Source of the DNA: Patescibacteria group bacterium
Lineage (GTDB): Bacteria > Patescibacteriota > Patescibacteriia > Magasanikbacterales > GWA2-37-8
DNA: 64,000 nt
Direction: 5' to 3'
Assembly: GCA_041661385.1 (NCBI GenBank)
Contig: JBAZUP010000001.1
Span: 576,907-640,906, forward strand
The translations under genes and the position numbers were made by a program. The notes beneath the pieces are model-generated. The model made no database searches. It was not told the origin of the DNA and saw only the letters and a program-made list of their open reading frames with translations. Shown here one piece after another: positions 5,520 through 55,733 of the stretch (positions are counted from its first letter, which is position 1; each line of letters opens with the position of its first letter).

Positions 5520-5524
5520 TCGAA

Positions 5525-22089: not shown

Positions 22090-22213
<124 letters not shown>

Positions 22214-22299
22214 CTTTTCAATTTTCAATATAGTTTTTTCCGTAACAATCAAATTCAAATAGGGTACTTTCGGTTGCATTCTACACCACTAAAAGTATA

Positions 22300-25825
<3,526 letters not shown>

Positions 25826-32657: not shown

Positions 32658-33014
32658 TTATTTAGACAACTGACTGAATACATAATTAGTAATTGCGTAG
32701 GCGCCGATGGTAATAATAAGACCCCAGATTGCGGAACTCAATGTCTCTTTGGCTTTGGATACAAGTTCCTCATTTCCGCGAGCGGTCATCCAGCGGATGC
32801 CGGCCATTGTTATTAACCCAAAAAAAACAAACCCAATCAAGCCAAGTACTGCGCTTATTGAAGCCTCAACTATTGAATAGACACTACTACCCGCGCCGGT
32901 GTCATACTGCGCTTTATTTGCTGCCGGATTTAAACCGTAGCTAACTGCCAAAACCGGCTTAACGGAAATTAATAAAAATGATAGTACTCCCAATAATAAA
33001 ATTTTTCTTTTCAT
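32658..33014 (-). CDS. TrbC/VirB2-like pilin-family small membrane protein (dispersed paralog)
   Basis: Signal peptide, then TM - RWMTARGNEE - TM, the same architecture and motif as the array at 35.0-39.9 kb. Confidence 0.55.
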   Translation of the reverse strand: MKRKILLLGVLSFLLISVKPVLAVSYGLNPAANKAQYDTGAGSSVYSIVEASISAVLGLIGFVFFGLITMAGIRWMTARGNEELVSKAKETLSSAIWGLIITIGAYAITNYVFSQLSK

Positions 33015-33916: not shown

Positions 33917-35047
33917 TTAATCAAGCCTTTGCTCCGAAATTGACCGATAAAGGTAATTTACTATCTCTTCATTACCGGACCGGAATTTTATCTTTTCATT
34001 TGCCATCAATATTTTTTTGCCATCTTCACCATCAATTACATCTTTTACCTTTTTTATAATTAATTCTGAATCCGTAAAATACCAACCCAGACCATTTTTT
34101 ACCACAAATTCCATTGTACCTTTTTCTTGCCCAAAAATAAAATGCGTAATAAGCAAAGGTTTCTGTAATAATAACGACTCATAAATAACCCCCGCGCCGG
34201 CCTTTGTAATAACCAAATCTGCTGCTCCCATCAACTCTGAAAGATTATCTACCCATCCCATTATCTTTGCTTCACTGTTATATTTTTGTTTTATACTGTG
34301 AAAGTTCTTCGCTTGACGCTTGTTAGTTCCACATACCGCAACCACTTCAGCGTTAATTTTATTTTTCAAAATCAGTTCGAATATTTTTTCTCCTTTTGGC
34401 AAACCATTTGCCCCACCAATCATCAAAATTATTTTTTTTCTTTCATTAATTTGATATTTATTTTTTACTTTCGCAACTTCCTCTGCCAATAAAATTTTTG
34501 TCGGGTGATTTACAATTTGATGAAATACAACTACCTTCTCCGGACTTACACCATTTGCCAATGCGATTTGTTTGGCAGCATCTGAATAAACAATATAGTG
34601 AAGGTTTTTATTATAAAACCAGATCGGCGAAACACTAAACGGATCAGTCACGATAATATATATCGGAATATCCATTTTTAAATCTTTTAAGGCGGAGCTA
34701 ATCGGTGAAACTAAAAAGTGCGTAGAAACAACCCCGCTCGGTTTATCAACCACCAGCCTGGCTTTAATTAAGGATTTTAAAAATAAATTAGTTAAAAAAT
34801 TTTCTAATTTTACTACTAACCTGCTGTTGTTTATAGTATAAATTACAGCATAAATCCAGGTTAAATTTTGTACCAGGAGAACATAACCGTTTTCAATAAT
34901 TAACCGAAAAAAAACTGAGGCCTGGTCGGCCATGTCAATTAATTTAGTCTCAGTTCCCGGATAAAGCCTTTTTAAATCCGATGCTAAGGCCTCCGCTGGA
35001 GCCTTATGTCCCCCTCCGGATTTGGCATAATATAGCCAAATTTTCAT
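33917..35047 (-). CDS. GT28-family glycosyltransferase (MGDG synthase/UgtP-like diacylglycerol glycosyltransferase)
   Basis: N-terminal SGGGH motif and a C-terminal MurG-like GT-B domain (ITKAGAGVIYESL). Confidence 0.6.
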   Translation of the reverse strand: MKIWLYYAKSGGGHKAPAEALASDLKRLYPGTETKLIDMADQASVFFRLIIENGYVLLVQNLTWIYAVIYTINNSRLVVKLENFLTNLFLKSLIKARLVVDKPSGVVSTHFLVSPISSALKDLKMDIPIYIIVTDPFSVSPIWFYNKNLHYIVYSDAAKQIALANGVSPEKVVVFHQIVNHPTKILLAEEVAKVKNKYQINERKKIILMIGGANGLPKGEKIFELILKNKINAEVVAVCGTNKRQAKNFHSIKQKYNSEAKIMGWVDNLSELMGAADLVITKAGAGVIYESLLLQKPLLITHFIFGQEKGTMEFVVKNGLGWYFTDSELIIKKVKDVIDGEDGKKILMANEKIKFRSGNEEIVNYLYRSISEQRLD

Positions 35048-35048
35048 A

Positions 35049-35504
35049 CTATTTATTAAGTGCCCTGTTCACAACATCATCAAGTGTTTGTCCGCCGCTG
35101 CCGGCATTGGTACCTAAATTTCTGCCGAGCGCCAAATTGGTTATCAAAATAGTTATTCCGTAAGCACTAATAATAATTAACAGACCAATAGTAGAATTTG
35201 CAATAGTTTTTTTTGATGAAGCAATTTGCTCGTCATTTCCCTGCGCCGTCATCCATTTGAAACCCGCAAACGCAATTAGCACAAATAAAACGGTACCGAC
35301 CAGAGATAAAAGCAATCTAATCATTTGTGAGGCGATTAGTCTTGGGTCTTTTGGTTCACTAAATCCAGCTCCAGTAGTTCCACCGGCGTGTCCAAGCTGA
35401 TTAAAAGATTCTGTGAGCCATCCTTGAGCGCTGGCTTTTGGTACCAATAGGAACAATGCTAACCATAGAACGGTTGTTATTAGAATTGTTTTCTTAAAAT
35501 TCAT
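35049..35504 (-). CDS. TrbC/VirB2-like pilin paralog 1 (FKWMTAQGNDEQI)
   Basis: Signal peptide, hydrophilic spacer, TM1, WMTAQGN-E loop, TM2, and a Gly/Asn-rich tail. Confidence 0.55.
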   Translation of the reverse strand: MNFKKTILITTVLWLALFLLVPKASAQGWLTESFNQLGHAGGTTGAGFSEPKDPRLIASQMIRLLLSLVGTVLFVLIAFAGFKWMTAQGNDEQIASSKKTIANSTIGLLIIISAYGITILITNLALGRNLGTNAGSGGQTLDDVVNRALNK

Positions 35505-35510
35505 ATGATT

Positions 35511-35903
35511 TTAAAATGATGTCGCTTGAGCAGTGTAAATCATGACAAAAGCAGTGATGCTATAAGCTGCGACGACTACAACCATACCAATTGTAGCGGT
35601 AGTAATAATATTTTTGGCTTTAGCTACTTGTTCTTCATTGCCCTGCGCAGTCATCCAAAGAAAACCAGAATAAACCATTAGAGCAAAGAAGATTGTACCA
35701 ACAAATGTTAAAACTATTTTAATTATCCGTCCGATTGTTTCAGAAAGGGTATATTGAGTTGTGTTTATACTAAAACCAGCATATCTCGCAATATTTTGCG
35801 CCGTTCCATTGTATCCTACCCCGATGTCTGGCGCGGCGAAAACCGGCACAATAAAAAATAATGAAATCATTAATGACAGAAAAAGGAAAAATTTATTTTT
35901 CAT
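35511..35903 (-). CDS. TrbC/VirB2-like pilin paralog 2 (FLWMTAQGNEEQV)
   Basis: Same architecture as paralog 1; 130 aa. Confidence 0.55.
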   Translation of the reverse strand: MKNKFFLFLSLMISLFFIVPVFAAPDIGVGYNGTAQNIARYAGFSINTTQYTLSETIGRIIKIVLTFVGTIFFALMVYSGFLWMTAQGNEEQVAKAKNIITTATIGMVVVVAAYSITAFVMIYTAQATSF

Positions 35904-35915
35904 ATTACATTAATT

Positions 35916-36416
35916 CTATGGAGCTGTCATACAACAAATCAAACTACTTGGGCAATCTGTTCCGGGCGCTTCAATTTCGAAATTCAGAGTACAGGAAGAT
36001 TTACATGTTCCACCATATTGACCTGTACAAGAAACGGATGTGTCACCGGTTGAACTGCTAATTCTTCCAGTTACAAAAGCGGTTATTGCATAGGCCGCCA
36101 TAACAACAACTAAACCAATTACGGCCTGTTGTATCATGCTTTTTGCATGGGATACTTTTTCTTCATTACCCTGCGCAGTCATCCAGGTAATTCCCGCCCA
36201 GACCGTTAACACCAAAAAAATTGTTCCAACTAACGATAACAGTCCGCTTATTACTGTTCCGACCGACATACTAAGATCGCCAGACAGTCCAACTTTACTT
36301 CCTTCGCCAACGGCAGATTTTAAATTATTTAATCCGTTTGTTAAAGGCGCGGCCTCAACAAAATTTTGAACTAGAAACAAACTACCGAGAGCCGCAATTA
36401 TTAAAACTTTTTTCAT
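35916..36416 (-). CDS. TrbC/VirB2-like pilin paralog 3 with a Cys-rich C-terminal tail (probable start at the internal MKKVLIIAAL)
   Basis: ITWMTAQGNEEKV motif and tail ...SCTGQYGGTCKSSCTLNFEIEAPGTDCPSSLICC. The ORF-track start at 36614 overlaps the upstream paralog. Confidence 0.5.
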   Translation of the reverse strand: MKKVLIIAALGSLFLVQNFVEAAPLTNGLNNLKSAVGEGSKVGLSGDLSMSVGTVISGLLSLVGTIFLVLTVWAGITWMTAQGNEEKVSHAKSMIQQAVIGLVVVMAAYAITAFVTGRISSSTGDTSVSCTGQYGGTCKSSCTLNFEIEAPGTDCPSSLICCMTAP

Positions 36417-36423
36417 ATAAAAA

Positions 36424-36975
36424 TTATTGACAAACACAAGTTGCAGAACCGTCTGCATCAACACAACTACCCGCTGTGTTGGACGCTGTAGTACAACTGC
36501 TATTAGTAACTCTGTTCGCACAAACCGCCTCACTACCGGAATTACAAACTGCCTGACTTGAGTTTCCCGTTTGTAAATTTGAAAAAATGAAATTTGTAAT
36601 TGCGTACGCAGCAAGAATCACAATAATTCCAATTGCTGCTGACTCGATGGTTTCTTTTGACTTGTCAATTTTTTCACTATTACCTCGCGCCGTCATCCAA
36701 TTAAAACCCGCATACAAAATCAAAAGGAAAAATACGATTCCAATTATCGACAAGACAATTTGAACAACCGAGCCAACCAACTCTGGTATAGCGTTTGGTC
36801 CGGCCTCAACTTCAGCAACCTTGGATGGCAAATAACAATCTTTTTTCCCCGAATCATTACAAGTCGCTTCTTGAGTCGCTTTCGTGCCATAATCAACGGC
36901 ATAACTATCTAAAGCCAATGAAAACCCGCCAAGCAAGACCAGAGCTAATAAGATTTTTCCAAAATTCTTTTTCAT
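36424..36975 (-). CDS. TrbC/VirB2-like pilin paralog 4 with a Cys-rich C-terminal tail (probable start at the internal MKKNFGKILL)
   Basis: FNWMTARGNSEKI motif and tail CNSGSEAVCANRVTNSSCTTASNTAGSCVDADGSATCVCQ. Confidence 0.5.
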   Translation of the reverse strand: MKKNFGKILLALVLLGGFSLALDSYAVDYGTKATQEATCNDSGKKDCYLPSKVAEVEAGPNAIPELVGSVVQIVLSIIGIVFFLLILYAGFNWMTARGNSEKIDKSKETIESAAIGIIVILAAYAITNFIFSNLQTGNSSQAVCNSGSEAVCANRVTNSSCTTASNTAGSCVDADGSATCVCQ

Positions 36976-37033
36976 ATATATTTTATCGAAATCGCGTCGT
37001 GAATCATTGATTGCTGCATTTTCAAACCCGCTT

Positions 37034-37435
37034 CTAATATGTTGCATTAACCAAATTCGTAATCACAAAATATGTAATCGAATATGAAACTAAAATTACC
37101 GCGAGTCCGATTACCCCGGTATATATTCGTCTTTTCGCTTGACTTACTTTTTCGTCGTTACCGGCCGAAGTCATCCATTCATATCCACCATACAACATTA
37201 TAACCAAAAAAATAATACCCACCATGCTGAGTGCAAGGCGGATCGTTTTGGCGGTAGTTATGCGAACATCCGTATCGGCAAAACCTGCAGTGCGCGGATA
37301 ACCAACACCAAGCGGATCAGCGCTGCCGGTCAGTAAAGATTGAGCAGAAACCGGCTGAAGATATACAGCTGCTCCGAATACAACCAAAAAAAGACCGATA
37401 ATTAGTCCCGTTATATTTTTATTTCGTAAATTCAT
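37034..37435 (-). CDS. TrbC/VirB2-like pilin paralog 5 (YEWMTSAGNDEKV)
   Basis: Same architecture; 133 aa. Confidence 0.55.
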   Translation of the reverse strand: MNLRNKNITGLIIGLFLVVFGAAVYLQPVSAQSLLTGSADPLGVGYPRTAGFADTDVRITTAKTIRLALSMVGIIFLVIMLYGGYEWMTSAGNDEKVSQAKRRIYTGVIGLAVILVSYSITYFVITNLVNATY

Positions 37436-37514
37436 AGCAGTTGTGTTTTCTATCTGCTAAAAGACACAATCCACTACCCAATCCGCGCAATTGCGCGGAT
37501 TGGGAGTTGATCTA

Positions 37515-37895
37515 CTAAGCTGTAGCTGTAACCAATTGATTGACGACAAAGTTTGCAAGACCGTAAGCTGATAGAATTATAGCGAGACCGATAACGGCCG
37601 CGATCATAATTTTCTTAGCTGTACCGACTTGTTCGTCGTTACCACCTGCAGTCATCCAAAGGAAGCCTGCGTAAAGCATCAATACTACTGTTACGATACC
37701 AAGGAACGCCATGGCGGCGCGAATGATTCTGGCGACAGTCGTACGGATGTCGGTTGTTGATAATCCGAGAGCCGGAGTAAGTTCACTGGTATTCAATAGC
37801 TCTGTTGGTGTGAGAGATTGAGCTAAAGCTGGGGTGAAAGTGAACAAGTTCAAACCGACCGCGAATATTGTTGCTAGTTTCTGAAAAGTTTTCAC
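37515..37895 (-). CDS. TrbC/VirB2-like pilin paralog 6 (FLWMTAGGNDEQV); probable GTG start after a GGAGG RBS
   Basis: The signal peptide begins at VKTFQKLATIFAVG. The upstream part of the 166-aa ORF-track frame has no signal-peptide character. Confidence 0.5.
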   Translation of the reverse strand: MKTFQKLATIFAVGLNLFTFTPALAQSLTPTELLNTSELTPALGLSTTDIRTTVARIIRAAMAFLGIVTVVLMLYAGFLWMTAGGNDEQVGTAKKIMIAAVIGLAIILSAYGLANFVVNQLVTATA

Positions 37896-38052
37896 AATTT
37901 CACCTCCCTTCCAAAATAGTTTTCTGACATATTTTATATTTTGACTCCTTCTCTGTCCATCACAAGCAGTTATACTTTTTAGTGAACTAAAACGTATAAT
38001 CCGCTTCCCAACCATGGTTTTATCAAAGGTTGGGAGCAGTTTAATTTTATTT

Positions 38053-38439
38053 TTATGGAGCAGTCGTGGCTGTCACTAATGAATTAATGACAAAATTCGC
38101 AATACCATACGCGGACAAAATAATTGCGAGACCGATGATGCCGGAGAAGATCCATTTTTTGGCTTCGCCGACTTTTTCATCGTTACCGCCAGCAGTCATC
38201 CAGGTGAAACCTCCGATAAGAATGATTACTACAGCGATTATACCAAGCATTCCCATGGCAACGCGAATTATGCGAGCAATGGTAATACGGATATCTGAGT
38301 CAGAAAGACCGGTAGCTGTTTGAATTCCTGTTGGCATTAATTCTGAACTTTGCAAAACAGTTTGCGCGAGTACTGGACTTGCTGCCAGCATGGTGGAACC
38401 CATTGCAATTACCGTGACAAATTTTTGTATTTTATTCAT
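38053..38439 (-). CDS. TrbC/VirB2-like pilin paralog 7 (FTWMTAGGNDEKV)
   Basis: Same architecture; 128 aa. Confidence 0.55.
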   Translation of the reverse strand: MNKIQKFVTVIAMGSTMLAASPVLAQTVLQSSELMPTGIQTATGLSDSDIRITIARIIRVAMGMLGIIAVVIILIGGFTWMTAGGNDEKVGEAKKWIFSGIIGLAIILSAYGIANFVINSLVTATTAP

Positions 38440-38534
38440 AGTTTCACCCCCTTTCGACTTTGAAATTTCGACATACTATATAAATCGACTGCGTATATTA
38501 TATCACACCTCGTTTTCAGGTGCAATTTATTAGC

Positions 38535-38924
38535 CTAAACCGATCCAGTAGACAATACTGTGGTCAATGTATTTACCAAAATATAGCTAGAAAGCACTAA
38601 TACTACACCAATTATTGCCCACAACATCGTGCTAGTACCTTTCTCAACTTTCTCAGTATTCCCAGCCGATGTCATCCATTGAAAACCACCCCAAATCAGC
38701 ATTAAAAGCGCGAGCGACCCCAAGATTCCAAGCGCTCCTTTAATGATTGTTCCGATGATAACAGTTGCATCAACTTTACTGCCAAGTGGATTATCAAGGC
38801 AAACATCCCCCACTTTTGGTACATAACCGGTTTTAGGATTTGCCACACAGGTTGCTGCTGAAACTGAAGAAAAATTCATAAACAGAACAAGTCCCGACAT
38901 TAATAACAATAAAGCTTTTTTCAT
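38535..38924 (-). CDS. TrbC/VirB2-like pilin paralog 8 (FQWMTSAGNTEKV)
   Basis: Same architecture; 129 aa. Confidence 0.55.
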   Translation of the reverse strand: MKKALLLLMSGLVLFMNFSSVSAATCVANPKTGYVPKVGDVCLDNPLGSKVDATVIIGTIIKGALGILGSLALLMLIWGGFQWMTSAGNTEKVEKGTSTMLWAIIGVVLVLSSYILVNTLTTVLSTGSV

Positions 38925-38934
38925 ATTAAACTTA

Positions 38935-39333
38935 CTACTTCAATTTCAAAAACACAAAATCAATTGCCATATAACTTACAGACATTACCGAAACCCCTAG
39001 CGCCGCCCAAATAATTATATTCTTGGCTGTCGTAATTTTTTCAGAATTTCCACTGGCTGTCATCCAAATTACACCGCCATAAACTACGAGCAAAAACATT
39101 ATCGCCCCCATAAACATCATGAGAGCTTTAATTGCAAGACCGATTATCTCTTGCCCGCTTAAAATTTTATTTTCTTTATTTTTTGGAAGTTGATTTAATG
39201 CTTGCGCATCAGCTTTTATTTTAGTCATCACTTTTTCGGCATCTTGATTTGAAGTGGCAGCCCCCGCAAATGCCGGTGAAAAAATCGCCAGCGAACAAAT
39301 AAACAATAAAATAATTTTTTTTAATTTATTCAT
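38935..39333 (-). CDS. TrbC/VirB2-like pilin paralog 9 (VIWMTASGNSEKI)
   Basis: Same architecture; 132 aa. Confidence 0.55.
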   Translation of the reverse strand: MNKLKKIILLFICSLAIFSPAFAGAATSNQDAEKVMTKIKADAQALNQLPKNKENKILSGQEIIGLAIKALMMFMGAIMFLLVVYGGVIWMTASGNSEKITTAKNIIIWAALGVSVMSVSYMAIDFVFLKLK

Positions 39334-39337
39334 ACAA

Positions 39338-39943
39338 CTACTGATTTAATTTAAACTGCGTTTCAATACCTACCGCATTACCGACAAAAATTACAATTGC
39401 ATAACCGCCGAAAGCGATGATTAGACCCAGCACTGCCGCGACAATAATACCCTTACCCTGCGCGACTTTTTCGGCATTTCCTTGCGAAAGGATCAATACA
39501 AAACCACCATAAACAAAATACAATAAAGTAACACCGCCAATAATACCAAATAAATAACGAATGATGTTAAACATTAAAATTAAAAAAACCGTTATGTCTC
39601 TGCATTCACCAACTACATTTGTTTCGTTTACACACGCCGGAAGAAATGCCCCCCATTTTTGTCCTACGGTTTTATCGGGCGCTGTAGCTGTAGTGTTAGC
39701 TAAATTATTTTTTGCACTTACGCAATCATTTACTGTCGTCATCCAAGCACAACTGGTGTATTTTGCATTTTGAGAATTGTTAAAATCACAAACGTCTTGA
39801 GTTGCCACATCTAAACAGGTGGTGTCAACTGCATTTTTTCCAACACAGAAACATTGGGCAGCTGCATTTGCTTCTTTTTTGAAAATAAAAACAGAAACAA
39901 GAATTAGCGCTCCAAATATAAATATCTGTGTATTTTTTTTCAC
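39338..39943 (-). CDS. TrbC/VirB2-like pilin paralog 10 with a Cys-rich N-terminal domain (divergent loop LSQGNAEKV)
   Basis: Signal peptide, an 8-Cys region of about 100 aa, then the TM - SQGNAEKV - TM core. Confidence 0.45.
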   Translation of the reverse strand: MKKNTQIFIFGALILVSVFIFKKEANAAAQCFCVGKNAVDTTCLDVATQDVCDFNNSQNAKYTSCAWMTTVNDCVSAKNNLANTTATAPDKTVGQKWGAFLPACVNETNVVGECRDITVFLILMFNIIRYLFGIIGGVTLLYFVYGGFVLILSQGNAEKVAQGKGIIVAAVLGLIIAFGGYAIVIFVGNAVGIETQFKLNQ

Positions 39944-39947
39944 AAAA

Positions 39948-41372
39948 TTATTTTGCTTTTATGTAAGTCTGATTTACTTTTGAGGCGGCGCGATGCAATA
40001 TTTCTTCTCGTGTTTTTGCCAAATCTTTATCATCAGGAACAGGCTGAAGCCACTCTGTGAACATTGTTTGTATCGCCTTATCGGCAGCTTCAAAATCTCT
40101 TCCTTGATACCAGTTCTCTGCCGTTAACACCTGCGAAACAAAAGGAGCAAGATCGGGATTTTGTTTTTGTTCAGCTAAATAAATACGCAAAGCAGTCGGA
40201 CGTTTTGTCAGTTCTAAATATTGTTTTGCGGCCGGTGAATGAGCAATAAAATCAATAAAACCCCACGCTTCATTTGAATGTTTAGATTTGGCTGTTACCG
40301 TTTGCAACCAATAATTTGCAGTATTAACAGCGGCACCTTCGGAAAGCTGGAGCATCGGAATAACTGAAAAATTTAGCTGTGGCGCACGGCTTTTAATAAT
40401 CGGAAACTCATAACTATACCCGAAGAAAAATGCCGTTTGTCCATTTACAAAACTATCAAGCGCGTTCGGCATTGAATCATTCCAAGTGTAAGTATCACGA
40501 AGCGGATTAGCAAAATCGGTATAAAAATTCATTATTTGGGTTGATGGCAATTCATCACCGGAAAAAGCCTGAGGCTTTGAATCAAAAACTGCAAAATTGT
40601 TCTGAACAAATGGTATTTTGCTTTGCGCGAATAATATGTACAACAAATCACTGCTCGCCGGAATATTTTTTCCGGTACCAAATGCCGCTCCGGCCTGTAA
40701 AATTTTTCCACTCGCCTTATCAAATTTAGTCAGTATTTTCACATCTGCTTGAAATTCTTCCCAAGTTTTTGGGGCCTCTGGAATTCCAGCCCGATCTAGT
40801 AAATCTTTGTTATAATAAATTCCCATGACATCTAGGGATAGTGGCAAGCCATAAATATTTTCTTTTACTTTGTCCTTTCTTATTGCATCTTTATAAACCG
40901 TCTGAACATATTCAGATTTAAGTTTAATAACATTAATCATTGCTTTCGGATTTGAAAACACATTTACGGTAGTACTAAAATTATTTTTTGTTTCAACCAG
41001 TGTCGTATCAGTTATTGTCGGTGGCATCGGTTGGAGCCGATCGATATATTTTCCAAGCGACCGCGCGTTTACAGAAATAATATCTGGCCCCTTATCATCC
41101 GCCAAGGCTTCAACAAAACGATTATAAATTTCATCGGACCGAAGCTGACGAACATTAATGGTGATAAATTTGCGATTGGCAGTATAAGCGCTAGCAAGGG
41201 CTTGAATTTTTTCAACATCATCAAATACCGTCCAATACTCCAAGACAAATGGCTTGGTGGCGGCCTGTTGCTGAAGAGAAAGCCCCTTACAACCAAAACC
41301 AGTCAAGATTAAAAGCGAACCGGCGGCCGTGAGGCCAAGGATTTTAATGAATTTTTTAGAAAAATTTTTCAC
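39948..41372 (-). CDS. Extracellular solute-binding lipoprotein (ABC transporter SBP family 1-like)
   Basis: Lipobox LTGFGC and a periplasmic binding-protein fold of about 450 aa. Confidence 0.55.
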   Translation of the reverse strand: MKNFSKKFIKILGLTAAGSLLILTGFGCKGLSLQQQAATKPFVLEYWTVFDDVEKIQALASAYTANRKFITINVRQLRSDEIYNRFVEALADDKGPDIISVNARSLGKYIDRLQPMPPTITDTTLVETKNNFSTTVNVFSNPKAMINVIKLKSEYVQTVYKDAIRKDKVKENIYGLPLSLDVMGIYYNKDLLDRAGIPEAPKTWEEFQADVKILTKFDKASGKILQAGAAFGTGKNIPASSDLLYILFAQSKIPFVQNNFAVFDSKPQAFSGDELPSTQIMNFYTDFANPLRDTYTWNDSMPNALDSFVNGQTAFFFGYSYEFPIIKSRAPQLNFSVIPMLQLSEGAAVNTANYWLQTVTAKSKHSNEAWGFIDFIAHSPAAKQYLELTKRPTALRIYLAEQKQNPDLAPFVSQVLTAENWYQGRDFEAADKAIQTMFTEWLQPVPDDKDLAKTREEILHRAASKVNQTYIKAK

Positions 41373-41378
41373 AATTTT

Positions 41379-42299
41379 CTAAATTACGCTTTTTAAAAAT
41401 TTTCTAAACTCAGCAGAAAGATTTTTATCACGCAGTGCGAAATCTACATTTGCTTTCAAATACCCAAGTTTGGAGCCGGTATCATAATAAACACCCTCTA
41501 CTTTACGCGCGTAAACATTTCTTTTTTGTAAAAGTTTAAAAATCGCATCAACCAGCCATAATTCGCCGCCTTTTCCTAATTTGGTTGTTTCAAGCGCTTC
41601 AAAAATATCCGGAGTTAACACATACCCGCCAAGACTCGCGAGGCGTGACGGAGCTTTTTCCGGACCCGGCTTTTCAACAATCCCCTTAACTTTCAAAACT
41701 CCATCTTCAACTTCTTTCCCATCAATAATACCATATTTACCGGTTCCTTCATCATTTACTTCGTACGCAGTTAAAACCGGATCACCGTACTTTTCAAAAG
41801 TTTCGATCAGTTGCGCCAATTGCGGTTTTTTGGGAGTGTAAAAAAATTCATCGCCCCACATCACCGCGAAAGGTTCATCTCCCACGATATCTTTGGCGCA
41901 CAATACCGGGGTTCCATTACCGTACGGACCTCGCTGACGGATAAAAATAAAATTCGCGAGATCGGCAATTTTCTTTACCTCTTCGGCCATTTCTTCCTTT
42001 CCTTGTTTTTTAAGTAAATTTACTAATTCGTAATTTGGACTAAAATGATCTTCCACGGCGCGCTTGCTGGGACCCGTTACCAAAATAATATCGGTTATTC
42101 CCGACCGCACCGCGTCTTCTACTACATATTGAATAATAGGTTTATCTACTACCGGCAGCATTTCTTTGGGCTGGGCTTTGGTGGCGGGTAAAAAACGAGT
42201 TCCAAGGCCGGCAACTGGAATTACTAACTTCTTAACTTTCGACATATTTTTCAGGGTCTTAACTCCTTTTACTTTGCTTTCAGTATAACAAATTACCAA
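41379..42299 (-). CDS. galU: UTP--glucose-1-phosphate uridylyltransferase
   Basis: VIPVAGLGTRFLPATKAQPKEMLPVVDKP signature. Confidence 0.85.
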   Translation of the reverse strand: MVICYTESKVKGVKTLKNMSKVKKLVIPVAGLGTRFLPATKAQPKEMLPVVDKPIIQYVVEDAVRSGITDIILVTGPSKRAVEDHFSPNYELVNLLKKQGKEEMAEEVKKIADLANFIFIRQRGPYGNGTPVLCAKDIVGDEPFAVMWGDEFFYTPKKPQLAQLIETFEKYGDPVLTAYEVNDEGTGKYGIIDGKEVEDGVLKVKGIVEKPGPEKAPSRLASLGGYVLTPDIFEALETTKLGKGGELWLVDAIFKLLQKRNVYARKVEGVYYDTGSKLGYLKANVDFALRDKNLSAEFRKFLKSVI

Positions 42300-42317: not shown

Positions 42318-45300
42318 CTACAAAACCGGACCGTTCAGCTTACAATCAACAGTACAAGATTCTCCGGGCTGTCCATTTCTTGCAGAGCCCAGATCACACT
42401 CTTCGGTCGGCGCTACGAGTCCGTCTCCGCAAACCGATACGCAATGGGTTGTTGCTTTTACAAAGCCATTCAAAGTAAGTTTGAAATTTGATTGAGTAGT
42501 ATGGCGTTCCGCGTGATAAAACGCGATTTCATAAGCGCCGTTCACAGTCAAACCAAGAGTTGTTGCCATTGCGGCATTCAGGGTTACACTTCCATTTACG
42601 CGCGGGTGTAAACCACCGATATCTAATGCAAGCTTTCCATTGATAAAGACCCATACATCATCATCGCCTGAAAAACTTAAAACCTCACCACCCTTATATG
42701 TAAACCAATAATGAATTTCTGTCGTGAAAGCGAAGTTGTGATTTAAGCCACCGCCTACTGGCGACATACCCCAAGAAGCAGGGGTTGGAATTGGATCTAA
42801 AGGAAAGAAGCCAAGTTGGGTAGTATTTGTTGTATTGCCAAGCGGAGTCAAACTACTGTCATATTCATATGTTACCGGGCTACTGTTAATCAAATTTAGG
42901 GTTATTGAATCATTAATAGTTTTATTTACACCCGGGGTATCAACATACCACTGCGCAAATTGTGAAGCTCCAGTTAACTGGGTTCCACAACCGTTGGATG
43001 GGTTCGCTGTAGAGCGTAAAAATACCGGATTACCACTTACAAGCTGATTTTGAATCAACCCGAGTGACGCCTGGCCGCAACCATAACTTTCAAAATCTGC
43101 ATGACCACCAGTTTCCCCGGCACCCTTAAAATCACGTAAAGTCATCGGTACGTTTAAAGTGCTCGGTGGAGTTTCTGTTATGTTTGTACAAGTTATACCG
43201 GTAATAGTTTCCGAAGTACAAGTTGCCGAACAACCGTCATTTGAAATTAAATTTCCGTCGTCACACTGTTCACCGGGTTCAATAATTCCATCGCCACAAA
43301 TCGCAATACAGGTACCACTGGTACAATTTGGACCACCACCACCCGACGAAGAAATTGTGACATTGGTGGCCCCGGTTACCGATCCAGAAACAGCTGATAC
43401 AACTGCGGTGCCCACCGACCCTGGCGGGGTATAAAGTCCAGCGGCAGAAATTGTGCCGTTAGTACTTGACCAAGTAAAGACTGGTGGCGGAACCATGCCA
43501 TTCCCAAATTGATCAGTTGAAGTTGCGGTGAATTGCTGAGGTGAACCACCCGCAACAACCGTAGGCGAAATCGGCATCACATCGATCACCGACAAAATCC
43601 GATCAACTGTTATTGATACAGCTGGTGAAGTTACGGTATTTCCGCTTTGATCCCGAATTACTACCTGGAATTGATAGGAACCGGCCGCATAAAAAGTAAC
43701 TCCATTATTTTTTGCCGCGTTGGTATTGTTGGTAACACTAAAAGTTGGATCGGGCGCCCCACTAGGTTTAGAAGTGATATTCCATGTATAGGTGAGACTT
43801 GTTTCGCCGCCGTCATCAGCTCCTAAAACTGAAAGGGTACTCGTTGTTTTTGTTACCGTCGAAGGATTTGCAGCTGCCGGAGTCGCGATAGTTGGCGCTT
43901 GAGAGCCTGGTCCGGCACTTTTAATTTCTACTCCGGCCATATTATAACCACCGGTAGCCGGCGCAGTTCTTGAAAAAACTACATTGCCTGAACTGGCAGT
44001 CGGACTTGTAATTTCTTGAACCCAAACTTGCTCGCTATTGCCGGTATTCCAATTATCAAGAAGTGTTTGAGTAAAAGTTGTAGCACTGCCGTTATAATTA
44101 ATATCCCAACCAGCGGCAAAAACTAATGACTTGGCGCTCGACGCGTTAATCGTCAAAGAAGCTGTTGAACCACTTGAGCCGTTAGACCTGTTAAACGTAC
44201 CCTGGGTTGTTGCGGCACCATCTAAAATCATAATTTTCAGAAAATCACGAGTCGCAGATGTAGAAAGTCGCGTTCGCACATTAGTCAAATTAGCACTTGG
44301 CACACCTTTATAAATAGCCACCGAACTCCCGCTCTGAACATTTGCAACCGAGCCAATTCTGGTCCATGTCAGTGTTCCGCCGCTTATTGTTGTATTGCTA
44401 AGACTAATACTTGCTGAGGTTCTGCTGGCGCCTATAAAAGCTAATACCAACTGATTGGCATTAACACTATAAACATCACTGGTCGGATTATCGCCAGTTA
44501 CTTTGGTTAAAGTTGTCGCAACAGTTGGTGCGGTCGCCGCGGCAGTAACTGACACCGTGACAGTTCCAGTAATACCACCCGAAGTAGCGCTAACTATTTT
44601 TGTTCCGATATCATTTGGCGTATAAAGACCGCCGGAAGTAATTGAACCTAAGTCCGCAGACCAGCTATAAGTAATGGGCGATGTTATCGGCTGGCCAAAC
44701 TGATCCATGGCTGTTGCGGCAAATTGTTGCGTTAAATCGACTCCCATTGTTACTGGAGACGGCGATACTGTCACTCCCGTTAAAGTCTGATTAACTGTTA
44801 CCGATAGTACTGGTGAAACAACTGAAAGCGAGTTTGCATCAGTGATTGTAACTTGAAATTGATAAGTCCCGGCCATTGAATATGTGACTGTAGTATTTTT
44901 TGCGGCATTAGAATTATTGAGATTAAAAACTGGATCAGCTGCTCCGCCGGGTTTTGAAATAATACTCCAGGTATATCGAAGATTCGCTTCACCGCCATCA
45001 TCATGTCCCAAAACTGAAAGAGCGCCCGTGGTACCACTTACAGACGCAGGAGTTGATATTGGCAATGAAGCAATCGTTGGTAAGGCGTTACCGTTACTGG
45101 TAATTGTAACAGACGCGAGAGCTATTACGCCGCCACTCACCGCGAGTACCGTTGCCGAACCGGCGGAATCTGGCGCGGTATAAAGCCCATTGGCGGAAAT
45201 TTTTCCATTTACGTCTCCACCGAGTACGCTCCAAACGATATTTTTTATGGTCGCATTCGCCGGCAATGCCGTTGCCGTAAATTGCTGAGAAGTATTCGCC

Positions 45301-46667
45301 GGAATTGTCGCGCTAGCCGGAGTAATATCAATACTTAAAACCGGAACAAAATCATCCGTTGTGCTAGTTGAACGAACTTCCTCCCAGCTAATTAAATTAT
45401 ATGATGACCCGACTGGAAAACCGGCCGGCGGACGGTAGGTAAGATTAGCATCGTAAAAATAATTAGTATTCTCAAAACCAGAACACACTGAACCACATCC
45501 TAAATATTTCATTCCACCGGCATAACTACCCACTCTTGATCCGTAAAAATTTTGAGTACTAATAATATTTTTTGTGCTGGCACCGACCTCTAAATATTTT
45601 GGTCTAAATATTGAACCGTTTACCGTAACCATCGCGGCATTAACTTCCATCGGATCAGGAATGTTGTAAGGAAAAACTATATTCTGATTAGTCATAAGAC
45701 CAATCACATTAGTTCCATCTTTGGCCAAATATACTAAGTTCCCATTTACAATCATGTCGTTATTAATTGTCGCAACCGTCGCCCGACCCTTCACCACGCC
45801 ATTTACCCAAACTGTGTCATCAACAAAAATATAACTACTGGTTGGAATTTGATAATTTGTTACTGGACCAAAATCTACCGCATCATAACAGGCATCGGAA
45901 TAACAAGTCGGCGCAGAAATAACTTTTGATACATCAACCGTACCATCATTTTTAAATGATAATTGATAACCATAAGCTCCGGAAGCCGGCAGATATGGCC
46001 AAACCAATCCGTTTGCCTGAGATTTAGTTTTTATTTCCTCCAATTTTACCTGCACACTAGCCAAATCTTTTACTGGCACTGGGTATAGCCAATAACTTCT
46101 CGGACCACCCGTTCCGGAAATTTCTATCGCGCTTGAAAGCGGCGCGTCACTTACCCCATCAAAATATATTCTCCCATTAGAGTGAGTCTTGCCATGGATA
46201 TAAGCAGTTGAGGAAAAAATTATATCGCTATCTATCAAAAATGCGTAATCGGATATTGCCGGAAAACCCAGACGAATTTTTAACGTGCGCTTCGAGTCCG
46301 GCTGACTTGCGAGCCAGCCAGTTGAATACATTGTTACAATTGTCGAACCTCCTTCTGGCGGAACAATTGTTAAGGTGTAATAACCAATTGTTTTACCTTC
46401 TTTATTTTTATATTCATGCGTATATGGCCCGGGCACCCCAGTTCCGTCCTGATAATCCTCTTTGTTGTGCGCAAGATGCCAACGATAATAAGCAATTCCT
46501 GACTCAGCAATTTGCAAAGCTTGCTCACGATTTTTCTTATATATCGAAGCGCGATTTTCAGAAACCGCATAAGAAATTAACCCAAGAATCGCAAAAAGAC
46601 TTGCTCCTCCGAGCACAATGACAATAATTAGAACGTTTCCTTTAATACCTAATTTTGATTTAAACAT
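42318..46667 (-). CDS. Giant cell-surface protein (1449 aa): N-terminal TM anchor, Ig-like repeats, Myxococcus-type Cys-rich repeats, C-terminal fibro-slime domain
   Basis: CGDGIIEPGEQCDDGNLISNDGCSATC and CGDGLVAPTEECDLG match the myxo Cys-repeat pattern. GDDDVWVFINGKLALDIGGLH matches the fibro-slime/PA14-like motif. Shares Ig-like repeats (TSTLSVLGADDGGE..LTYTW) with the 17471-22024 protein. Confidence 0.65.
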   Translation of the reverse strand: MFKSKLGIKGNVLIIVIVLGGASLFAILGLISYAVSENRASIYKKNREQALQIAESGIAYYRWHLAHNKEDYQDGTGVPGPYTHEYKNKEGKTIGYYTLTIVPPEGGSTIVTMYSTGWLASQPDSKRTLKIRLGFPAISDYAFLIDSDIIFSSTAYIHGKTHSNGRIYFDGVSDAPLSSAIEISGTGGPRSYWLYPVPVKDLASVQVKLEEIKTKSQANGLVWPYLPASGAYGYQLSFKNDGTVDVSKVISAPTCYSDACYDAVDFGPVTNYQIPTSSYIFVDDTVWVNGVVKGRATVATINNDMIVNGNLVYLAKDGTNVIGLMTNQNIVFPYNIPDPMEVNAAMVTVNGSIFRPKYLEVGASTKNIISTQNFYGSRVGSYAGGMKYLGCGSVCSGFENTNYFYDANLTYRPPAGFPVGSSYNLISWEEVRSTSTTDDFVPVLSIDITPASATIPANTSQQFTATALPANATIKNIVWSVLGGDVNGKISANGLYTAPDSAGSATVLAVSGGVIALASVTITSNGNALPTIASLPISTPASVSGTTGALSVLGHDDGGEANLRYTWSIISKPGGAADPVFNLNNSNAAKNTTVTYSMAGTYQFQVTITDANSLSVVSPVLSVTVNQTLTGVTVSPSPVTMGVDLTQQFAATAMDQFGQPITSPITYSWSADLGSITSGGLYTPNDIGTKIVSATSGGITGTVTVSVTAAATAPTVATTLTKVTGDNPTSDVYSVNANQLVLAFIGASRTSASISLSNTTISGGTLTWTRIGSVANVQSGSSVAIYKGVPSANLTNVRTRLSTSATRDFLKIMILDGAATTQGTFNRSNGSSGSTASLTINASSAKSLVFAAGWDINYNGSATTFTQTLLDNWNTGNSEQVWVQEITSPTASSGNVVFSRTAPATGGYNMAGVEIKSAGPGSQAPTIATPAAANPSTVTKTTSTLSVLGADDGGETSLTYTWNITSKPSGAPDPTFSVTNNTNAAKNNGVTFYAAGSYQFQVVIRDQSGNTVTSPAVSITVDRILSVIDVMPISPTVVAGGSPQQFTATSTDQFGNGMVPPPVFTWSSTNGTISAAGLYTPPGSVGTAVVSAVSGSVTGATNVTISSSGGGGPNCTSGTCIAICGDGIIEPGEQCDDGNLISNDGCSATCTSETITGITCTNITETPPSTLNVPMTLRDFKGAGETGGHADFESYGCGQASLGLIQNQLVSGNPVFLRSTANPSNGCGTQLTGASQFAQWYVDTPGVNKTINDSITLNLINSSPVTYEYDSSLTPLGNTTNTTQLGFFPLDPIPTPASWGMSPVGGGLNHNFAFTTEIHYWFTYKGGEVLSFSGDDDVWVFINGKLALDIGGLHPRVNGSVTLNAAMATTLGLTVNGAYEIAFYHAERHTTQSNFKLTLNGFVKATTHCVSVCGDGLVAPTEECDLGSARNGQPGESCTVDCKLNGPVL

Positions 46668-46685
46668 ATTAATTTTTTATTACGT

Positions 46686-47291
46686 TCAATTATCCTTTAA
46701 ATTTCTAATAACCGCTTTCGATTCGGTCGTAAAAGAATTCGGTGAGTTTAACGGATTTTTATCAATCGTAACTTTAATGCCAACCATTTTTATATTACCA
46801 AGTTCAACCGGCTGAACAAGCGGACTTTCGCTTCCTGTGTAAGCCGCATCATAATAAGTAAATATTGTTGTAGTCGGAACTACGCTGTGTAACATTTCCG
46901 TTATTACTTCCGTGCCCACATCGTAAACTAACGGATTGCCGCTTGGTTCAATAGTACCTTTTTTTAATAATGTTCCATCTAAAAAATATCTGACCCGATC
47001 GCGGGTTGCTTTGGCACCAGGATTTGAAAAAAAGATTATTTCCGTACTGCTCGCTTCCGCGATTGGATATGAGCCGATGCTCGAATAAGTAGCCCCGCGA
47101 ATTTCATTTACAAAATCATCCAAAACCTTACGGGTCTCACTTTGAGTCGACAGCTGTTCGGTAATTACATCCCCTTTTCTTGGAAACATGAATATAAACA
47201 ACTCCACCGCTGCTCCGGAAATTAACGTAAAAATAGCGATTGAAACAACTATCTCAATTAAAGTAACTCCTTTGTAGTTTACTCGAACCAT
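46686..47291 (-). CDS. Type IV pilin / pseudopilin (prepilin N-terminal GVTLIEIVV)
   Basis: Class III signal: basic leader, G, VTLIE, then a hydrophobic helix. Confidence 0.7.
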   Translation of the reverse strand: MVRVNYKGVTLIEIVVSIAIFTLISGAAVELFIFMFPRKGDVITEQLSTQSETRKVLDDFVNEIRGATYSSIGSYPIAEASSTEIIFFSNPGAKATRDRVRYFLDGTLLKKGTIEPSGNPLVYDVGTEVITEMLHSVVPTTTIFTYYDAAYTGSESPLVQPVELGNIKMVGIKVTIDKNPLNSPNSFTTESKAVIRNLKDN

Positions 47292-47293
47292 AT

Positions 47294-55030: not shown

Positions 55031-55381
55031 TTATTGAGGAAGAAACGCCCTAATCACTGTTTGAACAATACTATAAGAAAGAAATATTACGATCAATCCA
55101 ATAATTCCGTTCAACAACGTCTTTTTCGCTTTTTGAATATTTTCTTCCTTGCCGCCGGAAAATAAAAATGCTGCGCCGGCCTGAAGAATCACGAGCAAAA
55201 AAATTATTCCCACAAACCCAAGTGCGGTGCGGATTAATCTCGCGACGGTCATAATAATATCCGTATTAGCGAGACCGATAATATCCGCGGCATTATTCGC
55301 GCCTTTTTGTATAGCTGTCGCCCCATGGGCGGCATTTATTTTTTCCGTTGCCGTTACTACTGTTGAAGTTGTATCAATCAT
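55031..55381 (-). CDS. Divergent TrbC/VirB2-like small membrane protein (dispersed paralog without the WMTA motif)
   Basis: Two hydrophobic helices flanking FLFSGGKEENIQKAKK. Resembles the array members but has no obvious signal peptide. Confidence 0.35.
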   Translation of the reverse strand: MIDTTSTVVTATEKINAAHGATAIQKGANNAADIIGLANTDIIMTVARLIRTALGFVGIIFLLVILQAGAAFLFSGGKEENIQKAKKTLLNGIIGLIVIFLSYSIVQTVIRAFLPQ

Positions 55382-55485
55382 ATCTACTCACCTTAGCGCA
55401 TAACTAAGAATTATTCAAGACTTAATAATTATTAAAAAAATAAGGGCGCGACCTAATATCGGTCGCGCCCGGGTGCTGAATGTCT

Positions 55486-55656
55486 TCAGCGCTGTGCGGC
55501 GTTGCCTTGCGGCAACAGACAGTGGTTGTAAACTTCCAGGAATTCGAAGCCGTTCCGATTGAACACCCGCCCGCAAATCGGACACTGCATGTGGTTGCCT
55601 CCCGGATCACGGAAGGTGTGATTGCACGGAAGACTGATCAAACGCCGCTCCTCCAT
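55486..55656 (-). CDS. Small GC-rich Cys/His-containing (possible zinc-ribbon) protein, 56 aa (MEERRLISLPCNHTFRDPGGNHMQCPICGRVFNRNGFEFLEVYNHCLLPQGNAAQR)
   Basis: GGAGAGG RBS 5 nt upstream and a strong terminator hairpin GGGCGCGACC/GGTCGCGCCC + T-tract downstream. Local GC is about 57%. Below the ORF-track size cutoff. Confidence 0.4.
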   Translation of the reverse strand: MEERRLISLPCNHTFRDPGGNHMQCPICGRVFNRNGFEFLEVYNHCLLPQGNAAQR

Positions 55657-55733
55657 TTACCTCTCCTTTCGGGACCGGCATGGTCCAGACATTTCAACAC
55701 CCTAGCATTATTTTGAAGATATTTCAAGTCTTA

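Follow-up and report, generated by a model that had tools for sequence, protein, structure and literature searches.

Tandem arrays of two to 11 genes encoding VirB2-like pilins have already been described in Patescibacteria, where they are most abundant in Microgenomatia and Saccharimonadia and where their members share a mean identity of 25%, with a maximum of 54% (Quinonero-Coronel et al. 2025, PMC12102498). In the Figure S9 legend of the same study the arrays are scored as 'near virB4', and the T4SS of Patescibacteria is reportedly related to the MPF-FATA type, the monoderm conjugation type of the Mycoplasma ICE (PMC12102498). A six-gene array in Ca. Southlakia epibionticum ML1 is essential (Wang et al. 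2023, PMC10633639). Tandem virB2 paralogs are also found in the effector T4SSs of Bartonella and Anaplasma, with a proposed role in host-range or immune adaptation (as cited in PMC12102498). Reviews covering these bacteria report that no such pilus has been observed in a Patescibacterium.

We analyzed a 64-kb stretch of DNA (the window) from the genome of an ultrasmall, Magasanikbacteria-like bacterium. The ORF listing of the window contains ten consecutive minus-strand ORFs at 35049–39943, the same tandem array that a sequence-only reading of this DNA had described; the start of each array gene was picked so that its ORF gains a signal peptide. Two dispersed copies lie beyond the array, at 32658 and 55031. 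Ten of the 12 paralogs pass the gathering cutoff of the Pfam family PF18895 (T4SS_pilin; 26.6 bits), and the other two fall short by 1.7 bits: eight array genes score 28.6–47.7 bits, g9 and g10 reach 24.9 bits each, and the dispersed copies score 27.4 bits (32658) and 35.3 bits (55031). On these profile scores, 12 PF18895 matches in 64 kb are not due to chance. Matches to the TrbC/VirB2 family PF04956 were sub-threshold and involved three paralogs (E 0.002–0.055; best score 18.8 bits versus a cutoff of 27.9), with those of g7 and g8 covering most of the profile. In NCBIfam, 11 of the 12 paralogs matched NF045849, the 'Mbov_0395 family pilin-like conjugal transfer protein' of Mycoplasma ICE, over the hairpin (best E 9.4e-9), with no score reaching the curated 40-bit cutoff. 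The assignment to a pilin family, proposed earlier from the letters alone, was borne out by these searches.

Every paralog except that at 55031 starts with an MKK-type n-region and a hydrophobic core; these lead to an A-x-A-type cleavage site that places Ala at −1, beyond which lie two hydrophobic stretches of ~30 residues each. The loop between these stretches conforms to W-M-T-[AS]-x-G-N-x-E-x-[VI] in nine of the ten array genes and in the 32658 copy. The shared architecture that had been claimed for the ten genes therefore holds for the signal peptide and both helices throughout the array, and for the loop in all members except g10, which has VLILSQGNAEKV. Similarly, both dispersed genes are genuine PF18895 matches, with the qualification that the 55031 protein has no signal peptide and has the loop variant AFLFSGGKEENI. 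Identity among the paralogs averages 39% in the hairpin core and 17% in the N-segments, in agreement with the strong N-terminal diversification noted before.

The window contains a further instance of the known Patescibacteria VirB2-like arrays. Like the published arrays, this one belongs to PF18895, is organized in tandem, and is found in a monoderm CPR host with no relaxase context; its divergence is similar (mean pairwise identity of 29% and a maximum of 55%, for g6/g7, versus 25% and 54%), and its ten copies fall within the range of 2–11. Unlike the published arrays, it occurs in a Magasanikbacteria-like (ABY1-type) genome at least 34–45 kb from any T4SS ATPase, it has a conserved galU-SBP-array context, and its relatives have up to 14 copies. 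The papers cited here on such arrays say nothing of a conserved gene order, of a candidate major subunit or of position-specific ectodomains.

The array proteins resemble the TrbC/VirB2/TraA pilins of diderm bacteria (PF04956; F, RP4 and Ti pili) in having a signal peptide, a two-helix hairpin and a short polar loop, in their expected topology (termini outside, loop cytoplasmic and later facing the lumen), and in the sub-threshold match that, at E 0.002, extends over nearly the whole TrbC model. By contrast, they score below the Pfam cutoff, have no adjacent VirB3–B11 module, come from a monoderm host, and are encoded as numerous paralogs, of which some bear grafted Cys-rich domains. VirB2 and TraA carry a long leader, whereas the array leaders are of normal length (22–31 aa). 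The virB2 arrays of Bartonella and Anaplasma likewise comprise several diverged copies in tandem with variable surface-exposed parts; however, those arrays are parts of complete virB operons in intracellular pathogens that are diderm, whereas in the set described here positions are conserved across species and some members have extra domains. The Mycoplasma Mbov_0395-family protein is encoded by a single gene within an ICE and is not known to occur as an array. As an analogy only, type IV pili combine an abundant plain subunit, with a hairpin after its gene, and several low-abundance subunits, some of which have grafted extra domains; the protein family is unrelated, and a Pfam search of the array genes did not find the N-methyl prepilin motif (PF07963). 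Genes for true T4P-type pilins form a separate locus at 46686–49108.

The first gene of the array, g10 (39338–39943; 201 aa), encodes a ~100-aa N-terminal ectodomain with eight Cys ahead of a PF18895-like hairpin; its orthologs, defined as reciprocal best hits, occupy the first position in relatives, and 82% of them have at least four Cys in the N-terminal part. The second gene, g9 (38935–39333; 132 aa), has orthologs in the second position that usually carry a Cys-rich N-domain, which is missing here. The third, g8 (38535–38924; 129 aa), has the highest PF18895 score of the array (47.7 bits), two Cys in its N-segment, and a position that is kept in relatives. These are followed by g7 (38053–38439; 128 aa; PF18895 41 bits, PF04956 E 0.002), which is plain and Cys-free, by g6 (37515–37895; 126 aa), which has a GTG start and a strong Shine-Dalgarno (SD) site (GGAAGGGAGGTG), and by g5 (37034–37435; 133 aa). 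The g4 product (36424–36975; 183 aa; 39.7 bits) has eight Cys, two in the N-segment and six in the C-terminal tail, and that of g3 (35916–36416; 166 aa; 34.2 bits) consists of the hairpin and a C-terminal tail with six Cys; Cys-rich C-tails are found in 56% of g4 orthologs and 67% of g3 orthologs. The extensions of g10, g4 and g3 had all been recognized as Cys-rich in the sequence-only reading. The last two genes are plain paralogs: g2 (35511–35903; 130 aa; 30.2 bits), whose position is kept in relatives, and g1 (35049–35504; 151 aa; 28.6 bits), which has a Gly/Asn-rich C-tail. Five of the nine junctions are only 4–12 nt long, indicating that the genes are tightly coupled.

One member stands apart from the others in its conservation and expression signals. 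Among orthologs, identity in the hairpin core is 76–86% for g7, as compared to 35–69% for the other paralogs. In relatives, 76% of g7-type genes are preceded by an SD-like motif versus 0–29% of other types, a hairpin lies 3' of 57% versus 2–36%, and the 70 nt 3' of the gene have a median of −22.6 kcal/mol versus −7.4 to −18.3 kcal/mol. In the window, the g8/g7 intergenic region (38440–38534, minus strand) has a weak hairpin (fold z −1.2), an extended −10-like element (TGATATAAT) and a GGGGGTG Shine-Dalgarno site, and two stable RNA hairpins follow g7 (37965–38035, minus strand; dG −28.2 kcal/mol, z −5.3). Since g7 is the best conserved member, with an SD before it and a strong hairpin after it in most relatives, it is likely to be the major subunit, with its expression level read from these sequence signals. 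Judged by their identity, g6 is a recent duplicate of g7 (55% at the amino acid level, and 71% over 230 nt), and g5, which is 47% identical to g7, is another duplicate from the g7 lineage.

The array is surrounded by housekeeping genes (GalU, S15, PNPase and tRNAs), supporting the earlier view that the locus is not a conjugation module. The galU gene (UTP-glucose-1-phosphate uridylyltransferase; 41379–42245, minus strand; TIGR01099 331 bits versus a cutoff of 326.8) is conserved two genes upstream of the array: of 80 related loci, 52 carry a galU homolog, which is upstream on the same strand in 51. As reported before, VirB4, VirB6 and VirD4 are missing from the window, and we found none of them within 10 kb beyond either end; the flanks of 80 related arrays likewise contain no Walker-A ATPase of VirB4 size. 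Because T4SS genes are absent from the window, its flanks and the flanks of related arrays, it is purely by inference that we tie the array to a T4SS.

Our best explanation is that these VirB2-like "T4SS pilin" paralogs form an operon-like array on the chromosome of a Magasanikbacteria-like member of the Patescibacteria and encode a fixed set of subunits for a filament or conduit built mainly from g7 by a T4SS encoded elsewhere; we hold it, taken as a whole, with slightly better than even confidence. Each paralog would be exported by Sec and cut by signal peptidase I at the A-x-A site. A cleaved signal peptide followed by two helices predicts that both termini of the mature membrane α-helical hairpin are outside, and that the conserved W-M-T-A-x-G-N-x-E-K loop faces the cytoplasm in the membrane form. 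The sequence-only reading had treated a cytoplasmic loop as evidence against a pilin; this was mistaken, since the VirB2 model itself predicts one. Comparative evidence suggests an anciently diverged set with a division of labor. The plain, conserved g7 would be highly expressed from its SD and promoter-like site, with a stabilizing or attenuating hairpin downstream, and g6 and g5 would be its local duplicates; the genes before g7 (g10, g9 and g8) would provide N-terminal ectodomains held by disulfides, and those after it would provide Cys-rich C-terminal tails (g4 and g3) or further variants (g2, g1 and the 32658 copy). By homology, the T4SS would polymerize mainly g7 into a surface filament or a cell-wall-spanning conduit, in which the hairpin forms the shaft with its loop toward the lumen, and the variable termini and grafted domains are exposed for host-cell contact.

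An unlikely but credible alternative is that the PF18895 hairpin is a T4SS-independent, two-helix membrane anchor, possibly hetero-oligomeric, that polymerizes no pilus and displays small domains rich in disulfides at the cell surface, where relatives would display giant adhesins. Such an anchor would act with a sugar-binding lipoprotein from the same transcript to attach to the host or to capture nutrients, and a gene for an orphan solute-binding lipoprotein (39948–41372, minus strand; SBP_bac_8 E 2.7e-22, SBP_bac_1 E 1.5e-21; lipobox LTGFGC) does lie 4 nt upstream of g10, with which it is probably co-transcribed. Its homolog is directly upstream of the array in 57 of the 80 related loci, its NCBIfam matches to carbohydrate SBPs are weak, and no ABC permease gene was seen near it in the window and flanks. 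The lack of any T4SS gene linked to the array, here or at the related loci, also favors an anchor, as do the N-terminal ectodomains of up to ~350 aa in g10/g9-type orthologs. Relatives also encode fusion proteins of 690 to >3,400 aa that begin with the PF18895 module, whose C-terminus must therefore be extracellular; both of the fusions that were scanned have Ig-like (Big_5) domains, and the larger also has TIG and LamG domains. Such giant fusions are as compatible with a membrane anchor as with a pilin. An AlphaFold2 (AF2) model of g7 consists of two long helices (mean pLDDT 77). Fold searches retrieved nothing more specific than generic helical hairpins, their top matches including no pilin, and a PDB sequence search gave no match. 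However, the predicted helices, at 36–40 residues, exceed what a simple anchor needs, and the sequences are remotely similar to families of conjugative pilins, namely TrbC and the pilin-like protein of Mycoplasma ICE. Moreover, the family sits within an essential T4SS cluster in Saccharibacteria, and a plain conserved member with high-expression signals suits a polymer subunit better than a cargo-free anchor.

The sequence-only reading had proposed a variable pilin repertoire for antigenic or host-range variation, with read-through of hairpins tuning the expression of individual paralogs. The same speculation exists in the literature on Patescibacteria VirB2 arrays, and the exposed N-segments and tails do diverge far more than the core, both among paralogs and among orthologs (6–36% versus 35–86%). 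Arrays were present at all 80 related loci, with copy numbers of 2–14 and lineage-specific duplications of the g7/g6, g2 and g4 classes. Comparison with these loci nonetheless changed our interpretation. Paralog order and identity are collinear by reciprocal best hits across ~25 related species, and position-specific traits are kept, namely the Cys-rich N-domains on the first genes and the Cys-rich C-tails on g4/g3, which argues against shuffling. We found no long identical stretches, simple repeats or invertible elements in the array that could serve as substrates for recombination or phase variation, and the locus is identical in two other metagenome assemblies (100%) and has two mismatches in 20 kb in a third. 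Nor do hairpins separate the genes, as had been claimed: stable ones are confined to two of the nine junctions (g7/g6, z −5.3; g6/g5, z −7.1), and in relatives strong hairpins mark the g7-type gene rather than every gap. The g5/g4 junction had no hairpin in the fold z-score test, and the five short junctions leave no room for one. The 28-bp perfect palindrome reported near 37460 exists, at 37477–37504 (CCCAATCCGCGCAATTGCGCGGATTGGG); as RNA it folds into a 12-bp hairpin after g6 (dG −36.3 kcal/mol), next to which there is no U-tract. We therefore consider a fast-varying repertoire improbable; the array looks like one main subunit with conserved accessory subunits.

That the proteins are soluble effectors secreted by Sec, as the signal peptides might suggest and as the homologous TM7x genes were annotated early on (putative effectors, or a 'Sec secreted array'), is hardly credible, because two ~30-residue hydrophobic helices dominate the mature proteins and what these resemble in Pfam and NCBIfam are pilin-like membrane proteins.

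The dispersed copy at 32658–33014 (minus strand) is a reciprocal best hit of the last array member in the nearest relatives and, by this orthology, is the eleventh member of the conserved series. The copy at 55031–55381 (minus strand) is a divergent PF18895 protein with its own upstream terminator and start region; only two codons of in-frame space precede its start. Between the 32658 copy and g1 are a glycosyltransferase (GT) gene, a 126-aa ORF and two tRNAs. The first of these encodes a GT28/UgtP-like glycolipid glycosyltransferase (33917–35047, minus strand; Pfam MGDG_synth and Glyco_tran_28_C; NCBIfam diglucosyl-DAG synthase E 1.9e-37, below cutoff). It begins 1 nt past g1, and so lies between the array and its usual last member; in relatives this gene is weakly conserved and is often on the opposite strand.

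We identified ten consecutive minus-strand genes at 35049–39943, encoding proteins of 126–201 aa, in an ORF listing that covered 32–41.5 kb. We refer to these genes as g1–g10, with g10 transcribed first and g1 last. The gene count and size range given by the sequence-only reading held after three ORFs were trimmed to the start that yields a signal peptide (g3 at 36416, g4 at 36975 and g6 at 37895); the g6 start is a GTG, with GGAAGGGAGGTG just 5' of it. In alignment and hydropathy, the proteins share a layout in which an MKK-type signal peptide, with Ala as residue −1, precedes a variable hydrophilic segment and two helices joined by a loop with the consensus W-M-T-[AS]-x-G-N-x-E-x-[VI]. This architecture, also described by the sequence-only reading, applies to the array, except that the loop departs from the consensus in g10; of the two dispersed paralogs, d32658 (32658–33014) and d55031 (55031–55381), the latter departs from the loop consensus and lacks a signal peptide. 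An AlphaFold2 model of mature g7, computed with the 12 paralogs as the input alignment, consists of antiparallel helices at residues 22–57 and 62–101, with a mean pLDDT of 77 and 10-residue block means of 87–92 across residues 31–90. Divergence among the paralogs differs by region, with a mean identity of 39% for the hairpin core vs 17% for the N-segments, in agreement with the strong N-terminal diversification noted earlier. Cys counts likewise bore out the three Cys-rich extensions.

Whole-protein Pfam scores for eight of the ten array genes (g1–g8, 28.6–47.7 bits) exceeded the 26.6-bit gathering cutoff of the PF18895 (T4SS_pilin) family, with g9 and g10 slightly under it at 24.9 bits each. 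The dispersed genes d32658 (27.4 bits) and d55031 (35.3 bits) were also above the cutoff, as expected from their earlier designation as paralogs. We conclude that the array genes are members of the PF18895 family. The proposal that they are TrbC/VirB2-type pilins is supported to the extent that 10 of the 12 paralogs exceed the PF18895 cutoff, but no array gene reached the gathering cutoff of the TrbC/VirB2 family itself (PF04956, 27.9 bits). The best PF04956 scores were those of g7 (18.8 bits, E 0.002) and g8 (18.4 bits), whose sub-threshold matches cover most of the profile; a third paralog matched more weakly, and the remaining array genes had no match. The NCBIfam model NF045849 (Mbov_0395 family pilin-like conjugal transfer protein) was matched by 11 of the 12 paralogs, with a best E-value of 9.4e-9 and all scores below the curated cutoff of 40 bits (26.5 bits for g1), and these matches reflect remote similarity only. 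NF045849 is a Mycoplasma-ICE family, and this similarity fits the reported kinship of Patescibacteria T4SSs with the monoderm MPF-FATA type (PMC12102498). No array gene matched PF07963 (N_methyl, prepilin motif G|FTLIE) in Pfam, ruling out type IV pilin identity. Chance ORFs are ruled out by the 12 independent Pfam matches and by conservation in 80 genomes. A sequence-profile search of the PDB returned only spurious matches to Smoothened transmembrane helices (E > 0.5).

Tandem arrays of this kind have been described in Patescibacteria. A PF18895 and PF04956 search across 3,035 Patescibacteria genomes found VirB2 arrays of 2–11 genes with a mean identity of 25% and a maximum of 54% (Quinonero-Coronel et al., 2025; PMC12102498), and the window array resembles these in its tandem arrangement and low pairwise identity (10 genes; mean 29%, maximum 55%). 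The authors of that study speculated on adaptation to different hosts. A pilin series within the T4SS cluster of Southlakia epibionticum is essential (Wang et al., 2023; PMC10633639); this is the single species in which such arrays have been tested, and no pilus has been observed. A 2025 T4SS review regards this Southlakia array, with its six sequence-divergent VirB2-like pilins, as unique for the T4SS of a monoderm, and a pilus as no more than a possibility. Hence, the window locus adds one more case to a documented type of array and is not a new system.

The genomic setting of the window array differs from that of the published arrays, which were scored 'near virB4' (Fig. S9 legend, PMC12102498), within about 20 genes. 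Pfam annotation revealed no VirB4/VirD4-type ATPase or VirB6-like protein among window ORFs of at least 600 aa, and no VirB4, VirD4 or VirB6 in the 10 kb beyond either window end (precomputed annotation), so that the absence of these genes claimed by the sequence-only reading extends to the 10-kb flanks. The flanking regions of the 80 related loci were covered by a Walker-A screen and, for ten selected large ORFs, by Pfam; neither a T4SS ATPase nor VirB6 was found, and the large Walker-A ORFs there encode only FtsH and a lectin-domain protein. The window instead encodes housekeeping functions (PNPase, S15, GalU, PBP1a, RuvB, 23S/5S rRNA and tRNAs) and typical CPR surface proteins.

We compared the array with 80 related loci from a one-genome-per-species collection, using an HMM built from the 12 paralogs; contigs were scanned with five closer paralogs as the query. 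All 80 loci contain PF18895-like ORFs, in numbers ranging from 2 to 14 and mostly between 6 and 12. One locus (L038, DAOOSC010000008.1) has 14 such genes and three others (L029, L037 and L078) have 12, exceeding the 2–11 range published for arrays near virB4 (PMC12102498). Reciprocal best hits recovered the series g10-g9-g8-g7-(g6)-g4-g3-g2-g1-d32658, in order, in ~25 species whose PNPase is 70–80% identical to that of the window. In more distant genomes, the array still begins with g10-g8-g7, and its tail varies through local duplications. The window genes g6 and g5 arose as local duplicates of g7; d32658, usually the last array member, is cut off from the window array by a gene for a glycosyltransferase, two tRNAs and a small ORF. 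The array itself is 100% identical over 3.9-kb and 4.5-kb contigs in two other metagenome assemblies, and a third assembly has 2 mismatches in 20 kb. The closest array relatives are labelled Candidatus Magasanikbacteria, Uhrbacteria, Falkowbacteria or 'Patescibacteria group'. We also observed dozens of CPR MAGs with Magasanikbacteria-like gene content (L005–L009 and many others) whose record title is 'uncultured Gammaproteobacteria bacterium', together with single records named 'Acutalibacteraceae' and 'Candidatus Udaeobacter'; these public records look mislabelled.

The collinear positions differ in the character of their proteins. Proteins of the g10 and g9 types carry a Cys-rich N-terminal ectodomain, with at least four Cys in about 81% of orthologs, g4- and g3-type proteins have Cys-rich C-tails in 56–67% of orthologs, and proteins of the g7 type are short and contain no Cys. 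In every class, orthologs share only 6–36% identity over the exposed N-segments and C-tails. The hairpin and loop, by comparison, are 76–86% identical among g7-type orthologs vs 35–69% for other types, making g7 the best-conserved member of the set. The g7 gene also carries expression signals. A Shine-Dalgarno (SD) sequence is obvious in the window for g7 and g6 alone; among relatives, 76% of g7-type genes have an SD-like motif 5' of them vs 0–29% of other types. The 70 nt 3' of g7-type genes have a median folding energy of −22.6 kcal/mol vs −7.4 to −18.3 kcal/mol for other types, with medians of −7.4 to −9.5 kcal/mol for g10, g9, g8, g4, g3, g2 and d32658. The combination of conservation, Shine-Dalgarno motif and 3' fold is therefore the signature expected of a highly expressed major subunit, and g7 is likely to be the gene for such a subunit within the operon. 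We did not rely on the extended −10 promoter motif as a g7 marker; its enrichment 5' of g7-type genes is weak (16–22% vs 0–10% for other in-array types), and it also precedes 19–31% of separate d32658 genes.

We narrowly favor a model in which the array proteins form a T4SS-assembled filament or conduit, composed mainly of g7 together with accessory subunits. The proteins would be exported by Sec, cut by signal peptidase, and held in the membrane as a hairpin with both termini outside and the WMTAxGNxEK loop in the cytoplasm. They would then be assembled, probably by a T4SS encoded elsewhere, into a filament or wall-spanning conduit in which g7 is the main component and accessory subunits serve as decoration, with N- or C-terminal domains that would contact the host. 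The sequence-only reading had treated a loop on the cytoplasmic side as refuting pilin identity; this was mistaken, since the VirB2 model predicts a cytoplasmic loop. Monoderm T4SSs normally lack a pilin.

In six relatives (L047, L046, L056, L066, L074 and L077), the PF18895-like hairpin forms the N-terminus of proteins of 690 to >3,400 aa. Pfam confirmed PF18895 in two fusions from L047 (L047:7814–9943 and L047:9947–20341); both contain Ig-like (Big_5) domains, and the larger also contains TIG and Laminin_G_3 (ConA-like lectin) domains. The hairpin is N-terminal to these large domain proteins, and the C-terminus therefore lies outside the cell. The fusion genes form an adjacent pair just 3' of hisS and a signal peptidase I (Peptidase_S26) gene; the window has no fusion gene of this type, and we found no published mention of hairpin–giant protein fusions.

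The array is also linked to an SBP_bac_1/8 lipoprotein gene (SBP; 39948–41372, minus strand), whose stop codon is 4 nt from the g10 start in the window, and which lies directly 5' of the array in 57 of the 80 related loci. The galU gene (41379–42245, minus strand) is upstream in 52 of the 80, and this conservation spans several CPR lineages. The SBP appears to be an orphan, because neither an ABC permease nor an ATPase partner was found near the array. As an unlikely alternative, the array and the SBP would together serve as an anchor or display system that needs no T4SS. Under this alternative, the Magasanikbacteria-type PF18895 array would be a heteromeric surface filament or anchor lattice, with g7 as the major subunit, that grips host cells and harvests host glycans with a co-transcribed SBP; its accessory subunits would bear domains rich in disulfides or, among relatives, giant adhesins of the Ig/TIG/lectin type. 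If this improbable reading were true, 'VirB2-like pilins' would be a free-standing modular surface-display system and not part of a T4SS.

On the other side of the array, a GT28 glycosyltransferase gene (33917–35047; UgtP-like, that is, diglucosyl-diacylglycerol synthase-like) starts 1 nt past g1, such that the array is bracketed by UDP-glucose (galU) and glycolipid (GT28) genes. Solved conjugative pili contain stoichiometric lipid, and a glycolipid link to the array proteins is therefore conceivable; poor conservation of the GT28 gene in relatives counts against it.

The sequence-only reading had proposed a variable repertoire of pilin-like subunits, with intergenic hairpins allowing differential read-through. 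Stable RNA hairpins are present only 3' of g7 (z −5.3) and g6 (z −7.1); the hairpin after g8 is weak, there is none after g5, and the other junctions span 4–12 nt. The reported 28-bp perfect palindrome exists, at 37477–37504 rather than ~37460. We found no long identical DNA stretches, simple or tandem repeats, SSRs or invertible elements in the array, which rules out phase variation or gene conversion driven by such sequences and argues against a variation repertoire, an explanation we consider quite doubtful. The probability that the array encodes soluble effectors is negligible.

The papers on Patescibacteria VirB2-like arrays that we consulted do not mention separation from virB4, linkage to galU-SBP, or a fixed major-plus-accessory organization, and these are modest but testable additions. 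The window array and its 80 relatives suggest that the arrays are fixed multi-subunit kits, each combining a probable major subunit with accessory subunits that bear domains and with a linked binding lipoprotein; in this lineage, the arrays lie away from T4SS genes. The locus bears on the biology of CPR episymbiosis, and its organization names targets: a subunit for tagging and cryo-ET, candidate adhesin subunits, and dependence on VirB4.

A type IV pilus-like cluster at 42318–49108 is distinct from the array and syntenic with it in closer relatives (19–24 of 80 loci). Pfam identified two N-methyl prepilin genes in this cluster, at 46686–47291 (201 aa) and 47294–49108 (604 aa, with CarboxypepD_reg domains). 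The cluster also encodes a 1,449-aa protein (42318–46667) with a hydrophobic N-terminus and Big_2, PKD, DUF4215 and PA14 domains. Repeated segments of the latter are shared with a 1,517-aa surface protein (17471–22024) that has a 17-glycine run, repeated PKD-like modules and a C-terminal region without a family match. An 851-aa secreted protein (58902–61457) combines an OB-fold (tRNA_anti-codon) and a PKD domain with three Lamin-tail domains (LTD); another LTD protein is encoded just past the window end (L084:1966–4452).

The dispersed paralog d55031 neighbors comM, lspA and a DksA/TraR-type zinc-finger gene. Upstream of it are a small CxxC...CxxC zinc-ribbon-like ORF and a GC-rich hairpin that resembles a terminator, GGGCGCGACC...GGTCGCGCCC with a T-run after it (55400–55700 region). 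In a GC-rich stretch at 4738–5600 (0.49 vs about 0.40), long ORFs on the two strands overlap. Public annotation calls a 248-aa protein in this stretch; Pfam gave no match for the protein, and no Rfam family matched. The 23S rRNA match (22098–25821) spans 3,513 nt vs 2,925 nt for the model, indicating ~590 nt of insertions. The 5S gene adjoins the 23S gene and the rRNA genes are unlinked, because the window contains no 16S rRNA; 23S insertions and unlinked rRNA genes are both common in CPR genomes.
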